Part shown: positions 16,150 to 19,265 of the stretch, one piece after another | How the letters are laid out: each line of letters begins with the position of its first letter | How positions within the stretch are numbered: the first letter of the stretch is position 1 | From: a virus | DNA length: 38,154 nucleotides | IMG/VR virus record: IMGVR_UViG_3300045988_064121 | Coordinates: 1-38,154 of that record | Reading direction: 5' to 3' (one strand) | The notes under the pieces: generated by a model | Database searches by the model: none | Seen by the model: only the letters and a program-made list of their open reading frames with translations | Told to the model about the DNA's origin: nothing | Translations under genes and position numbers: made by a program

Positions 16150-16656
16150 ATAGAAAAGAAAAATGGAGGATTTAAGCAAATAGCAAGAAGTATGTATTTT
16201 CTAGACAAAATGAATGCGATGGGTGGTGTAGCCGTTGCCGTATTAACATACGTATTAGGTGAACATTGGTATTTATTCGCATTCTTCTTATTTATGAATG
16301 TAGTTGACTACATTACGGGGTGCATGAAGTCGGCTATTGCTCATAAAATCAATAGTAATAAAGGATGGATTGGAGTGCTTAAAAAGCTAGGCTATTGGAT
16401 TATGATTGTCGTTGCGTTCACGTTCAGTGCTTTTTTGGTAGAAGTTGGAGAAATTCTAGGACTTAATTTCCATGTATCTACATTGCTAGGTTGGTTTGTG
16501 TTAGCTTCGCTATGTATTAATGAATCTCGTAGCGTTATGGAGAATTTATTACAATGTGGTTACAATGTACCAAAAGTATTAACTAAAGGATTAGAAGTAG
16601 CAGATAAACTCGTTAACGAAGAACAAGACAATGACGAATCAAGTACCTTGGAATAA
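16150..16656 (+). CDS. Holin (phage_holin_4_1 / TcdE-like); start ambiguous (ATA 16150, ATA 16180 or ATG 16192)
   Basis: Three TM segments; DYITGCMKSAIAHKINSNKGWIGVLKKLGYW is family-typical. The track start GTG 16141 lies inside the SD AAGGAGTG. ATA 16150 is 8 nt after GGAG. ATA 16180 (ATAGCA) is 10 nt after GGAGG 16165-16169. Confidence 0.7.
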   Translation: MEKKNGGFKQIARSMYFLDKMNAMGGVAVAVLTYVLGEHWYLFAFFLFMNVVDYITGCMKSAIAHKINSNKGWIGVLKKLGYWIMIVVAFTFSAFLVEVGEILGLNFHVSTLLGWFVLASLCINESRSVMENLLQCGYNVPKVLTKGLEVADKLVNEEQDNDESSTLE

Positions 16657-16897
16657 GATTATTCTTGAAGAATTTATTAATCTAGCTTTATTAACTAAAG
16701 ATGAAGAAATGATTTTAAGAACAAGAATATACGGATGGACCGTTAGAGAACAAGCCGATAGATTAAACATGAGTGTTTCTAGTGTGAATCGAATTATCAA
16801 AAAGATTAAGAATAAGTATGATACAGTAGAGAAGTATAGCGCAGTCCTACCACCAAGAAAAAGCAGTGAAAAAGAAACGTTTTTAGATGATAATTAA
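16631..16897 (+). CDS. Small sigma-70 region-4-like HTH protein
   Basis: LTKDEEMILRTRIYGWTVREQADRLNMSVSSVNRIIKKIK resembles a region 4 HTH. It overlaps the holin 3' end. Confidence 0.45.
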   Translation: MTNQVPWNKIILEEFINLALLTKDEEMILRTRIYGWTVREQADRLNMSVSSVNRIIKKIKNKYDTVEKYSAVLPPRKSSEKETFLDDN

Positions 16898-16921
16898 GAG
16901 GTTGAAAAACCTCTTTTTTTT
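16896..16921 (+). terminator. Intrinsic terminator
   Basis: AAGAGGTT-gaaa-AACCTCTT followed by a T-run. Confidence 0.75.
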
Positions 16922-16975
16922 GACATTTATTTGACATTAATGTGGAAACAAATTGAGATTGCGAATGAATATAAT
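16920..16975 (+). promoter_or_regulatory. Possible cargo-cassette promoter region: tandem TTGACA boxes (16920, 16931) and TATAAT (16970)
   Basis: Hexamers read directly. The spacings (about 33 nt and longer) do not fit a standard sigma-A promoter. Confidence 0.3.
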
Positions 16976-16990
16976 TAGGAGTGTAAAGAG

Positions 16991-17425
16991 GTGAGTAAAA
17001 TGTATAATCCAATCAATGACAGAATTAATAATTTAATGAATCAAAAGCAGATGATTGAATCGCAATTACAGAACATTCAACAACTAGCAAATATTCCACC
17101 TATTAACATTAACAACCAAATCACGCCTAATATGGCGTTGAATGATTTCAATGGTAAGTGGGTTAACAATGAACAAGAAGCAAGGAATATGATGGTGAAT
17201 GGATTGCCTAGTATTATGCTAGATAGAAATGATTCAGTATTCTACATGAAGTCATTAGACGGCAGTTTCAAGAAATACAGATTCCAAGAAGAAACAGAAC
17301 CAAAAAAAGACAACATAGAGCAACGCTTAGACAAGCTAGAAGCTATGATATTAGGTCTAAAAGACGGAAGTAATATAAATACAAAGGCAAACAAAGAAAC
17401 GCCTAGAAAGGAGCTTAAAGCGTGA
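16991..17425 (+). CDS. Q/N-rich hypothetical protein (alternative start ATG 17000)
   Basis: SD-preceded ORF with low-complexity NQ-rich N-terminal half. Confidence 0.45.
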   Translation: MSKMYNPINDRINNLMNQKQMIESQLQNIQQLANIPPININNQITPNMALNDFNGKWVNNEQEARNMMVNGLPSIMLDRNDSVFYMKSLDGSFKKYRFQEETEPKKDNIEQRLDKLEAMILGLKDGSNINTKANKETPRKELKA

Positions 17426-17631
17426 ATCCTTTAATGAATATGATGAACCCTCAACAAATGTTGATGGGTATGTTGCAACAAAGAAACCCACAAGCATTTA
17501 ATCAAGTTCAACAACTAATGCAGAGTGGGCAGAATCCCCAAGTATTGCTAAGTAATATGATGGGGCAACTAACGCCACAACAGAAGCAACAATTTGATTC
17601 AGTGGCTAATCAATATGGGCTAAAACGCTAA
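17422..17631 (+). CDS. Small Q/M/N-rich protein (NPQ repeats)
   Basis: AAAGGAG then GTG 8 nt later at 17422. MNPLMNMMNPQQMLMGMLQQRNPQ... Confidence 0.45.
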   Translation: MNPLMNMMNPQQMLMGMLQQRNPQAFNQVQQLMQSGQNPQVLLSNMMGQLTPQQKQQFDSVANQYGLKR

Positions 17632-17655
17632 TTGCGTTGAAAGGAGGAAATATAA

Positions 17656-18267
17656 ATGGAAAGCATGAATGGTATTCAACCAATGTACGATTTAGCAGAC
17701 AGAAACAACAATGAATTTGGTGGAGGATATTGGATTTGGATTATCCTTTTATTCTTACTGTTTGGTGGAAATTGGGGTAACAATGGAAACCTACAGAATG
17801 ATGAATTAATGAATCAAGAATTCATTAAGCGTGATTTATTCAACACAAATCAGAATGTATCTAGCCAAGGATATCAAAATTCAAGAGATATTCTAGAAAG
17901 CCGATACACAACTCAATTAGGTTTGCAGAATCTAGGACAACAGAATCAAGAATGTTGTTGTGCGACGCAAAGAGCGATTGACGGTGTAAATACACAAAGC
18001 TTCAAAAACACGTGTGATATTACCACTGCAATCCACGCAGAAGGCGAAGCAACAAGAGCATTAATTAATGCTAACACAATGCAAGAATTGCGTGATAAAT
18101 TAGCAGACAGAGACCGAGATTTATTGACGGCTAATTTCCAATTAAGTCAACAGGCGCAATCTGCAAATATCATCAATACATTGCAACCAACGCCAAAACC
18201 TGCATATCTTACTTGCTCACCTTATTATGCATACAATATGACAGGTTGTGGATGTAACCAAATCTAG
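17656..18267 (+). CDS. Membrane-anchored Cys-rich protein
   Basis: AAAGGAGG SD. One TM segment (YWIWIILLFLLFGG). CCC triplet and C-terminal CGC. Confidence 0.5.
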   Translation: MESMNGIQPMYDLADRNNNEFGGGYWIWIILLFLLFGGNWGNNGNLQNDELMNQEFIKRDLFNTNQNVSSQGYQNSRDILESRYTTQLGLQNLGQQNQECCCATQRAIDGVNTQSFKNTCDITTAIHAEGEATRALINANTMQELRDKLADRDRDLLTANFQLSQQAQSANIINTLQPTPKPAYLTCSPYYAYNMTGCGCNQI

Positions 18268-18302
18268 CTCGAAAGAGATTAGGCAATAGCCTTTGGATTA
18301 TA

Positions 18303-18331
18303 GGGTAGTCGAAAGGCTACCCATTTATTTT
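18303..18331 (+). terminator. Intrinsic terminator
   Basis: GGGTAGTC-gaaa-GGCTACCC followed by ATTTATTTT. Confidence 0.65.
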
Positions 18332-18349
18332 ATATAGGAGGAAAAGAAA

Positions 18350-18769
18350 ATGATTAATAGTATAGCAACGGCAGTACAGACAGTAGCAAACGGACAAAAT
18401 GTATTATTTCCAACGGACAGAGTAAGAACGAAATCTTGTCAATGTGCTTGTAAAGGTTGGCTTGCTCATGATGTAGGAAGTGGACTATTTACGTTGACGA
18501 AACAAGGAATTTATGAAGTAGAATATACGGCAGACATCACAAGTGCAACAGTAGGAGTTGCTTCTTTAGAATTAGAACAGAATGGAGAAGCAGTAGGCGG
18601 AACACAATCTTTATATAATGTAGCTACTGCAAGTGCATACGGAAATGTAAGCGGAGCTACATTGATTCAAGTACCTTGTGGAGCTTCTTACACAATTACA
18701 TTAGGAAATAACAGTGGCTTAGATTTATCTGTTCAGAACGCAAATATCATCATTAAAAAGTTAGCGTAG
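18350..18769 (+). CDS. BclA C-terminal-domain-like (C1q/TNF-like jelly-roll) protein without collagen repeats
   Basis: By-eye pattern match to the exosporium BclA CTD: F.L...GIYEV.Y......A....ASLELEQNGE.V.G.... and the C-terminal ANIIIKKLA (BclA ends ASIIIEKVA). Confidence 0.45.
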   Translation: MINSIATAVQTVANGQNVLFPTDRVRTKSCQCACKGWLAHDVGSGLFTLTKQGIYEVEYTADITSATVGVASLELEQNGEAVGGTQSLYNVATASAYGNVSGATLIQVPCGASYTITLGNNSGLDLSVQNANIIIKKLA

Positions 18770-18776
18770 GTGTATC

Positions 18777-19214
18777 ATGCAAGAGGTTAGAAAAAGGAAT
18801 CTAGACCTCTTAACCGAAGCAATGAGAGGACTAGAAAAAGGATACAATGATTTAGATTTTAAAGTTATGAGCCAAGCTTTAGACAATATCAAAGACATTG
18901 ATACAATACTAGCTATGAGTGATGGAAGAACTGCTATAAATGCATTAAAAACAAATGATACAGATATTGAAGGAACGGAAATTGATGATAATATTGCATT
19001 GATGAATAGCCATTTTAGGAAATACATAGAAGCTAAAAAAGAATATCGAAAAGATAACAATGAAATTGATAAACAAAATTCAATTCGTGAATTAGAAGCC
19101 TTTCTTAGTGCTATGTATGGAATCTTAGAAGAAATGAAAACGTCTAGCGACTTTCAAGAAGAAAGAGAAATGGTAAGAGATAAGTTAAGAGAAATGTTTT
19201 CAGTATATCAATGA
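18777..19214 (+). CDS. Helical hypothetical protein
   Basis: ORF with a weak SD; last gene of the cargo cassette. Confidence 0.4.
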   Translation: MQEVRKRNLDLLTEAMRGLEKGYNDLDFKVMSQALDNIKDIDTILAMSDGRTAINALKTNDTDIEGTEIDDNIALMNSHFRKYIEAKKEYRKDNNEIDKQNSIRELEAFLSAMYGILEEMKTSSDFQEEREMVRDKLREMFSVYQ

Positions 19215-19219
19215 TAAAT

Positions 19220-19265
19220 ATCCTCTTTATGTGCTATAATCGGCATATAAGGAGGATTTTTTTTA
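19220..19265 (+). terminator. Strong intrinsic terminator whose 3' arm contains the endolysin SD; extended -10 (TGcTATAAT, 19232-19240) in the loop
   Basis: 15-bp stem, 19220-19234 with 19243-19257 (two G-U pairs), then T8. Confidence 0.7.

Follow-up and report, generated by a model that had tools for sequence, protein, structure and literature searches.

The virus record IMGVR_UViG_3300045988_064121 raises the question of what six small genes do between the holin gene and the endolysin gene of a temperate phage. The stretch analysed (positions 1 to 38,154 of the record, hereafter the window) is a ~38-kb siphovirus-type genome with 33% G+C, and the six genes, hereafter the cassette, lie on its plus strand. 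From the sequence alone, an original prediction had described them as a moron-like unit with its own regulator that may remodel the host or spore surface or, alternatively, modulate lysis. Comparison with related loci identifies the six-gene stretch as one copy of a widespread and so far uncharacterised phage module. That this copy is run by a private regulatory relay and makes a membrane complex, built on the protein p203, that acts around lysis is the overall explanation proposed here, with a confidence just short of even.

All six predicted open reading frames (ORFs) were recovered on the plus strand between the two lysis genes. The first, HTH88 (16631-16897), encodes an 88-aa protein with a sigma-70 region-4-like helix-turn-helix (HTH) and starts within the holin gene, whose 3' end it overlaps by 26 nt. 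It is followed by p144 (16991/17000-17425), for which the ATG at 17000, giving 141 aa, is preferred by relatives and gene callers; by p69 (17422-17631), 69 aa long and with a GTG start; by p203 (17656-18267), the signature protein of the module, with a transmembrane (TM)-like helix and a long helix; by p139 (18350-18769), a stand-alone BclA_C/TNF-like protein; and by p145 (18777-19214), an acidic helical protein encoded by the last cassette gene. The ratio of non-synonymous to synonymous substitution rates (dN/dS), computed against 19-25 relatives at a synonymous distance of ~0.3, was 0.10 for HTH88, 0.05 for p144, 0.13 for p69, 0.025 for p203, 0.022 for p139 and 0.05 for p145, compared to 0.10 for the holin. 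Chance ORFs were ruled out by this range (0.02-0.13), and all six are taken as real genes because the ratio was low for each of them; in the window lineage, p203 was more constrained than the holin itself. The base composition of the cassette (GC 0.30-0.39 versus ~0.33) carried no clear foreign signature.

Gene order was followed by iterative local searches over the first 80 loci, 79 of which had p203. The conserved order was HTH, p144, p69, p203, p139 or an alternative protein of ~120 aa, and finally p145 or DUF7841. p144 was present at 65 of the 79 loci having p203, the small HTH protein at 34 loci, p69 at 39 and p139 at 38; the p139 slot was occupied by an unrelated ~120-aa family at 27 loci, and the last slot by p145 at 19 and by DUF7841 at 31. 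In tblastn searches, homologues of p203 and p139 were adjacent in many gut-virome contigs, and also in Dulem viruses 33, 35 and 39 and in Butyrivibrio virus Ceridwen, and p203 homologues were detected in six Clostridium perfringens phages. A tblastn search of the phage collection with p144 gave no match, and the nucleotide search of cultured phages matched nothing except the lysin gene. In a set of 5.8 billion proteins, the p203 family numbered 6,180 clusters when 90% identity was applied and 783 representatives at 50%. Among the 120 family matches listed there was no Pfam domain or informative name, and the literature search found no publication on the family.

The nearest relatives of the window phage are prophages from human-gut metagenomes. 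For its p203, the identity was 77% with proteins annotated in Holdemanella biformis genomes and 74-78% with loci from Solobacterium and Waltera bins. The hosts of the module are much more diverse. A scan of one genome per GTDB species yielded 69 p203 loci in bins of Clostridia, Bacilli, Negativicutes, Bacteroidota, Gastranaerophilales, Treponema, Fibrobacter, Mycoplasmatota, Mucispirillaceae and others, and Megasphaera was among the contig hosts carrying the module. Independent phage records with the module included a Bacteroides phage (C3_41T2LP), crAss-like phages from three families and viruses assigned to Methanomassiliicoccales. In a Holdemanella prophage (L008), the module lay between the tail genes and the holin. 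It followed the endolysins in Ceridwen and Dulem virus 33, was located beside the holin and lysin genes in the two crAss-like phages examined, and had integrases downstream at five loci. When the three ORFs upstream of the module were inspected at ~45 loci, ~16 matches to cell-wall-hydrolase or peptidoglycan-binding domains and one match to a holin family were obtained.

In their records, the crAss-like homologues carry the names 'spike protein/glycoprotein' or 'outer capsid protein/viral fiber'. In cr116_1 (L085, 3407-4303) and cr52_1 (L086, 2598-4156), the 'spike protein/glycoprotein' genes were full-length members of the p203 family. The cr52_1 gene has in-frame TAG codons, consistent with stop-codon reassignment in that phage, and the gene upstream, labelled 'RNA polymerase sigma factor/ubiquitin-like protein', seemed by eye to resemble the DUF7841 type. 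The spike, fiber and sigma factor/ubiquitin-like labels of crAss-like phages belong to the module, and they are not to be taken literally.

As the original prediction had it, p203 has the parts of a TM-anchored cysteine-rich protein: a short acidic N-terminus, a glycine-flanked hydrophobic segment at residues ~24-38, three cysteines in a row (CCC) at 100-102 and GCGC at the C-terminus. The hydrophobic TM-like segment was conserved throughout the family, and the motifs found family-wide were GG..W.WI..LF.L...GGNGF, CCCETNRNID, NTC.I..AIH.EGEATR, LRPxPxPAYxTCSPY and the terminal GCGC. An AlphaFold2 (AF2) model made with 50 relatives showed a short helix over the hydrophobic segment and an uninterrupted helix at residues 50-176, with both ends disordered; the predicted local distance difference test (pLDDT) score was > 89 for residues 110-170. 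A Foldseek search with this model returned no PDB match, and the PDB sequence search with p203 was also empty. The protein falls in phrog_16490 and phrog_9288, both families with no assigned function. When 50 relatives were scanned, Flg_hook was matched by 7 of the 50 (best E = 0.004), a result judged to be a low-complexity effect and rejected, and the remaining matches were scattered and weak.

The partners of p203 were equally without a name, as Pfam, PHROGs, NCBIfam and PADLOC gave no function assignment to p144, p69, p203 or p145. Neither a signal peptide nor a lipobox was found in p144, p69, p139 or p145, and no cassette protein had a lipobox. Two Q/N/M-rich proteins with NPQ repeats had been predicted, and this description fits: p69 contains 36% Q+N, 14% Met and three NPQ motifs, and p144 contains 23% Q+N. 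From the alignment and an AF2 model (mean pLDDT 71), p144 has a Q-rich helix at its N-terminus and another helix at its C-terminus; between them lie the invariant PPININN linker and a small beta-alpha-beta-beta-beta domain. The p144 model had no significant PDB fold match with Foldseek, and its relatives in BFVD were all unannotated or auto-labelled gut-virome proteins.

The p69 family alignment showed NP-capped Met/Gln-rich helices, and the overlap of the GTG start with the p144 stop suggests that p69 is translationally coupled to p144. Sub-threshold matches to SurA_N, XPC-binding, Trigger_C and STI1-HOP_DP were detected in 1-4 of 34 family members, and the window p69 itself matched nothing; TALE-repeat matches of the p69 profile in the PDB were discarded as artefacts of repeat summation. 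In crAss-like p203 homologues, a p69-like stretch rich in Met is fused to the front of the TM helix. Because the fused segment precedes that helix, p69 is suggested to handle the hydrophobic helix of p203, and it is possibly a chaperone for this segment.

The product of the last gene, p145, is acidic and helical and belongs to phrog_28802, a family with no assigned function. DUF7841 (PF25223; for example, L041 7899-8561) alternated with it as the regular last module gene in the 31 loci mentioned above and ends in a highly charged tail rich in Arg, Tyr, Asp and Glu; the literature search returned nothing relevant on this family. The idea that p145 and DUF7841 are divergent homologues was rejected, as the hhalign probability was < 10%.

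The predicted likeness of p139 to the C-terminal domain (CTD) of BclA was supported by the Pfam BclA_C family (PF18573), which it matched with 40.4 bits against a cut-off of 38 (3.2e-10), by matches of the p139 family profile to the BclA structures 2z5w, 2r6q and 3twi at 2-4e-4, and by an hhalign probability of 80% to the F-BclA CTD; the PDB sequence search with the single p139 sequence was empty. p139 and all of its 112 homologues are single-domain proteins of ~138 aa, in which no collagen-like region, exosporium leader, signal peptide or TIGR03720-type match was found. The ~120-aa family that occupies the same slot had nothing in Pfam, and divergent homology between it and p139 was rejected with hhalign (< 10%). 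In the Bacillus exosporium, ExsF, a stand-alone TNF-like trimer, docks the Pro-rich leaders of trimeric stalk proteins (bioRxiv 10.1101/2025.02.11.637640). The hhalign probability between p139 and ExsF was 8%, which is not significant, and the analogous idea that the Pro-rich tail of p203 might dock on p139 as a leader docks on ExsF is unsupported.

The regulation of the cassette seems to start in the gene that overlaps the holin. HTH88 is basic (pI 9.0), and its own matches were borderline: in Pfam, HTH_23 reached 24.3 bits where 24.6 were required (2.6e-5) and Sigma70_r4_2 was found at 1.5e-4, both just under threshold, and TIGR02937 and PRK06930 ('positive control sigma-like factor') matched at 4e-6 and 6e-5, respectively. 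The positional counterparts were clearer. Among 24 HTH proteins in the same module slot, 18 matched Sigma70_r4 (best 1.5e-9), 15 Sigma70_r4_2 and 3 DUF1492, which corresponds to LtrB; the sigma region-4-like assignment made in the original prediction is in line with these results. The promoter scan detected no promoter of HTH88 itself above chance. Downstream of HTH88 come, in this order, its stop codon, terminator T1, a group of boxes, a TATAAT, a ribosome-binding site and p144. T1 (16896-16923, plus strand) has an 8-bp stem and a T8 run (-9.9 kcal/mol), lies between HTH88 and p144 and would separate the cassette operon from the late/holin transcript; a terminator at this place, between the HTH gene and p144, was also present in many other copies of the module. 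All three hairpins predicted between holin and endolysin were in fact seen by the hairpin scan, at 16896-16915, 18303-18322 and 19220-19257, within a region (14-22 kb) that had 16 terminator-like sites against 2.8 expected.

Tandem TTGACA boxes with a TATAAT at non-standard spacing had been predicted, and behind T1 the boxes and the odd spacing were both there, except that three boxes were found rather than two: box 1 at 16920 (TTGACATT), box 2 at 16931 (TTGACATT) and box 3 at 16953 (TTGAGATT), all on the plus strand. With spacings of 11 and 22 bp, they span 16920-16960 and form the sole such cluster in the window. The -10 TATAAT of the cassette promoter (16970-16975, plus strand) was unchanged in relatives, and the TGAnAyT core of the boxes was kept together with it in ~25 of them. 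The nearest box lies 11 nt upstream of the -10 and the next one 33 nt, so that no box is usable as a -35; the sigma-70 promoter scan did not list this promoter. Across the module family, the spacers between the HTH gene and p144 often held a terminator plus two to six helically phased repeats, the sequence of which varied from locus to locus. Phased 8-mers with at most one mismatch were found in 14 of 23 distinct spacers, against a mean of 4.1 and a maximum of 10 in 200 shuffles.

This arrangement recalls the Ltr superfamily of late activators, which includes RinA, ArpU, LtrA (Sigma70_r4), LtrB (DUF1492) and LtrC, and in which experiments showed that direct repeats located after the activator gene and a terminator are needed to activate the downstream promoter (Quiles-Puchalt et al. 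2013, PMC3753634). By analogy, HTH88 is proposed as an Ltr-type activator and the three boxes as its candidate operator. Because the HTH88 reading frame starts inside the holin gene and no promoter in front of it was convincing, expression of the cassette is probably very late.

Within the operon, hairpin T2 (18303-18331, plus strand), located between p203 and p139, has an 8-bp GC-rich stem and a poor T-run (-14.4 kcal/mol). The promoter scan showed no promoter-like site downstream of it, and T2 is probably a partial terminator or attenuator. The 3' edge of the cassette is formed by T3 (19220-19257, plus strand, within a composite element at 19211-19268), a 16-bp terminator hairpin (-22.5 kcal/mol) followed by a T-run. 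The upper part of T3 contains a perfect extended -10, TGCTATAAT (19232-19240), which scored 10/12 with TG in the promoter scan, and its 3' arm contains AAGGAGG, the Shine-Dalgarno (SD) sequence of the endolysin gene. Hairpin, TGnTATAAT and SD were kept in 24/24 relatives, with compensatory changes in the stem, and hairpin, extended -10 and SD were also kept in the three deletion variants described below. A transcript begun inside T3 would have no 5' arm, leaving the ribosome-binding site free, and read-through RNA would either terminate or have this site masked. The presumed internal promoter of T3 would thus allow the endolysin gene to sit behind three terminators.

The endolysin gene itself (19266-20720, plus strand) encodes a CHAP-like N-terminus and a GH25 domain (2e-22), and endolysin PHROGs cover residues 3-139 and 249-452 of the protein. 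Its frame is open only from 19251, and the first ATG, at 19353, lies past the CHAP catalytic-type QCW motif. The T-run before the gene contained 5, 7 or 8 T among relatives, differences that are not multiples of three; because of this variation, the start was placed after the T-run, at the ATA at 19266, within a conserved TTA-ATA (19263-19268; TTG-ATA in one relative). The predicted start position was thereby retained, with the correction that the codon is a non-canonical ATA, conserved in relatives. The window also encodes a phage tRNA-Ile (34519-34594) with anticodon UAU, which decodes AUA, and ATA represents 16% of the Ile codons across 15 large window ORFs; a connection between this tRNA and the ATA start seems unlikely.

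A scan of IMG/VR with the holin protein yielded 36 loci, 29 of them with a holin of 83-99% identity. Wherever the contig extended far enough, nearly all of these 29 had the six genes at the position seen in the window, at least 24 near relatives had an identical cassette layout, and a 98%-identical copy of the cassette was found within a 92-kb contig having bacterial flanking genes. In three independent natural deletion variants with differing breakpoints, the cassette was gone and the holin and endolysin genes were retained. In one of them (L114, 6496-6590), 16642 is joined to 19158 and 43 bp of p144 are left, another (L100, 6496-6760) retains 18664-18923, and the third (L111, 6566-6701) joins 16712 to 19128. 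Because remnants of the cassette persist, these variants are losses and not ancestral states. The cassette is therefore dispensable: it can be lost without touching holin or endolysin. It has been lost repeatedly although it is under strong purifying selection wherever it is intact. Two apparent domain fusions, P0326 (p144+BclA_C) and P0427 (HTH_23+BclA_C), were dismissed as uninformative, being deletion chimeras in which p144 is joined to the end of p139 and HTH88 to p139, respectively.

The moron-like unit of the original prediction survives in part. At the sequence level, the cassette appears as a discrete accessory block with its own regulator, promoter and terminators, found at other positions elsewhere. 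Expression from the lysogen is the part that the sequence speaks against, as the regulator is tied to the holin gene and the promoter has no usable -35. The original prediction had set expression strictly with the late genes against its own reading, and the architecture suggests a dependence on late transcription of this kind.

Other recognisable genes of the window encode minor capsid protein 2, a tape-measure-type protein, an SPP1_Dit-type protein, a Sipho_Gp37-like tail protein and a tyrosine integrase. Immediately upstream of the cassette, the holin (16141-16656, plus strand) was identified by Phage_holin_4_1 at 1.2e-30 and by the holin family phrog_199. Between the tape-measure gene and the holin (14256-16137) there are only the SPP1_Dit-type (288 aa) and Sipho_Gp37-like (337 aa) genes, and in this tail module no obvious receptor-binding protein or tail-fibre gene was seen. 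In the early region, right after a 72-aa ORF, a type II hammerhead ribozyme was matched at 25422-25488 (plus strand) with 39.4 bits against an Rfam gathering score of 37 (E = 1e-4).

Put together, these elements would work as follows. HTH88 would be made from the same late transcript as the tail genes and the holin, and this transcript would end at T1. HTH88 would then bind the three 11-bp-phased TTGAnATT boxes and activate a promoter with a good -10 and no usable -35, which would drive p144, p69 and p203 and, through a leaky T2, p139 and p145. Transcription would stop at T3, which would supply the endolysin gene with its extended -10 promoter and ribosome-binding site. Of the products, p203 may form an oligomeric coiled-coil stalk, with its glycine-flanked helix in the cytoplasmic membrane and a Pro/Tyr/Cys tail. 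The hydrophobic helix of p203 would probably be shielded by p69, p144 would be an obligatory partner, and p139, as a TNF/C1q-like trimer, and p145 could be exchangeable peripheral subunits. We tentatively suggest, as a reading that is more doubtful than the overall explanation, that the cassette encodes a non-essential complex which is located at the cytoplasmic membrane, is produced as infection draws to its close and modulates lysis or egress. A membrane complex near lysis is favoured because of the p203 anchor, the apparently late expression, the frequent adjacency to lysis genes and the dispensability of the cassette, and the cytoplasmic membrane is chosen as its site because it is the sole cell structure common to all hosts of the module. 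The link to lysis comes from the location of the cassette within the lysis region of the window and from the position of the module beside holin or lysin genes in the Holdemanella prophage, Ceridwen, Dulem virus 33 and the crAss-like phages.

Several points weigh against this explanation. Accessory genes generally accumulate in lysis regions and at prophage ends, which makes adjacency a weak argument, and at five loci the module is flanked by the genes for minor capsid protein 2 and the scaffold, whereas in C. perfringens phages it is among early-type genes. These phages already own a holin and an endolysin, and the deletion variants retain both. In Pfam and PHROGs, no cassette protein matched a known lysis-accessory family, spanins and antiholins included. 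Both flanks of the p203 helix are acidic (1.1 K/R versus 3.5 D/E on the N-terminal side, and 1.2 versus 2.1 after the helix), and a positive-inside analysis favoured neither membrane orientation of the protein. The matches behind the chaperone idea for p69 are sub-threshold, and the tail motif of p203 is the same whether p139 or the ~120-aa family follows, so docking has no support from covariation. Every regulatory step is read from sequence architecture and the Ltr precedent, and the assembly of the proteins is likewise inferred, from parts that rest on sequence, conservation and models. Finally, host assignments of phage contigs in metagenome-assembled genomes can be wrong; the breadth of hosts stands despite possible bin errors because the independent phage records back it.

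Other explanations were weighed against the same observations. An unlikely one is that the proteins form an accessory fibre of the virion, with p203 as a trimeric coiled-coil shaft, p139 as a TNF-like knob and p144 and p145 as adaptors, attached to the head or tail and aiding adsorption or gut adhesion. Such a fibre might supply the receptor-binding function that the window phage seems to lack, as its tail module goes from the Dit and Sipho_Gp37-like genes to the holin without a receptor-binding or fibre gene in between; the five structural proteins have no signal peptide or lipobox, which fits assembly in the cytoplasm, their expression is apparently late, and five module copies lie next to the scaffold gene. 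The combination of a stalk and a TNF-like protein also resembles BclA filaments and viral fibres, in agreement with the labels of the crAss-like annotators, although these probably reflect mere coiled-coil similarity. However, the hydrophobic TM-like segment of p203 is conserved family-wide, and the same module occurs in sipho-like, crAss-like podo-like and archaeal viruses, in which the docking sites would differ. In C. perfringens phages the module is far from structural genes, the Holdemanella prophage L008 has large tail proteins in addition to it, and a relay that delays expression past the structural genes would be odd for a structural part. Quite improbable, and a shade more so, is a membrane-anchored device for superinfection exclusion or competition that blocks DNA entry or adsorption of other phages, or else a defence of the abortive-infection type that the phage carries as cargo. 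The membrane anchor, the non-essential and frequently deleted state of the cassette, its mobility between unrelated phages and its placement in accessory-gene hot spots near lysis genes and integrases (five of them downstream) would all suit such a device. Yet the 5,027 defence models of PADLOC yielded nothing beyond weak HTH noise, neither an enzymatic nor a sensor domain was seen, and an activator taken from the late transcript would leave the cassette silent in the lysogen, the state in which exclusion is most important. The module is also present in lytic crAss-like phages, and the very strong purifying selection (dN/dS 0.02 for p203 and p139) contrasts with exclusion and defence genes, which often diversify.

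The function first suggested for the cassette, remodelling of the host or spore surface by exosporium-type (Gln-rich, Cys-rich, BclA-like) proteins from a lysogenic-conversion moron, is highly improbable. p139 is genuinely BclA-CTD-like, p203 is Cys-rich, some hosts (C. perfringens) do sporulate, and the docking of Pro-rich leaders by ExsF loosely parallels p139 with the p203 tail. On the other hand, the contigs that carry the module are assigned to non-sporulating, diderm and wall-less bacteria and to archaeal hosts, and the lytic crAss-like phages carry it too; because of this distribution, a spore-specific role is ruled out and a purely lysogenic-conversion role is unlikely, so that surface remodelling is already largely refuted. 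The details agree: p139 lacks the collagen-like stalk and the exosporium leader and has no significant similarity to ExsF, no cassette protein matched spore-coat or exosporium families in Pfam or NCBIfam, a membrane or export feature exists on p203 only, and the regulator is bound to the late/holin transcript. A literature search on a link between BclA and prophages and on the named phages found nothing relevant. A membrane complex acting around lysis is thus retained as the preferred reading. A bolder form of it, which we consider as unlikely as the virion fibre, is that the cassette represents a new class of machinery in the gut virome, common to siphoviruses of Firmicutes, crAss-like phages and viruses of methanogenic archaea, with a membrane-inserting, fusion-protein-like stalk, a chaperone dedicated to the TM segment, exchangeable heads and a private Ltr-type relay that turns it on as infection ends. 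The N-terminal peptide of the stalk would then be hydrophobic and Gly-rich, its long helix would oligomerise and carry a ring of Cys, and its Pro/Cys tail would be the conserved end; if true, the whole would be a device for egress or membrane remodelling that is independent of the host envelope.

The large and nameless p203 family, with fixed partners and a private regulator in unrelated hosts, offers a concrete target for functional work. Genetics is feasible because relatives sit in the cultivable Holdemanella biformis and homologues in isolated phages of C. perfringens, Butyrivibrio and Bacteroides. Judged by sequence, the design of the regulator is known from the Ltr proteins, and the cassette proteins are uncharacterised.

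The cassette shares features with several known systems. Like the morons of lambdoid and HK97-like phages, it is a terminator-bounded block with its own promoter among late-region genes, absent from some close relatives and found at other positions in unrelated phages. Unlike typical morons, which are single genes expressed from the prophage by host RNA polymerase alone, it contains six genes, its promoter has no -35 and apparently needs an activator from late transcription, and its module also occurs in lytic crAss-like phages. The spanins Rz/Rz1 and the T4 class III holin T with its antiholins are lysis proteins that can be compared with p203. With them, p203 has in common a short N-terminus, a single N-terminal TM helix, a large helical C-terminal part containing Cys, and a gene in or near the lysis region, the resemblance to T4 T being one of outline only. 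It differs from spanins in that the cassette encodes no lipoprotein, the probable hosts are monoderm (the closest relatives being Firmicutes prophages of the Holdemanella/Solobacterium type) and the family extends to archaeal and wall-less hosts; it differs from a holin/antiholin system in that the only gene matching a holin family lies upstream of the cassette, in phages that already have this canonical holin.

Reovirus sigma-1, the adenovirus fibre and PRD1 P5 combine a coiled-coil shaft with a TNF-like or jelly-roll head, a design that p203 and p139 recall. Unlike in these attachment fibres, shaft and head would be encoded by separate genes, and p203 has a TM-like segment and no fold match. 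With the BclA CTD and ExsF/BxpB (C1q/TNF fold), p139 shares the BclA_C domain, and p139 and the p203 tail are loosely parallel to ExsF and its leader; unlike BclA, p139 is a single domain of 139 aa without collagen repeats or leader, and most hosts of the module do not sporulate. The short NP-capped Met/Gln helices of p69 resemble those of STI1/DP, SurA-N and trigger-factor-C chaperones, with all matches below the curated thresholds.

A further parallel is that with the Ltr superfamily. HTH88 is likewise small and basic and has a DNA-binding domain that resembles sigma-70 region 4, and the cassette shares the layout of activator gene, terminator, direct repeats and promoter. Ltr proteins, however, are ~130 aa long, their genes precede terS, and they activate the morphogenesis and lysis operon in its entirety, whereas HTH88, with 88 aa, stands at the end of the late operon and apparently controls an accessory operon of five genes only. 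Since it overlaps the holin and its box cluster occurs nowhere else in the window, HTH88 does not have the placement of a master switch, and the cassette would extend the Ltr design from a 'master late switch' to a 'private switch of an accessory operon'.

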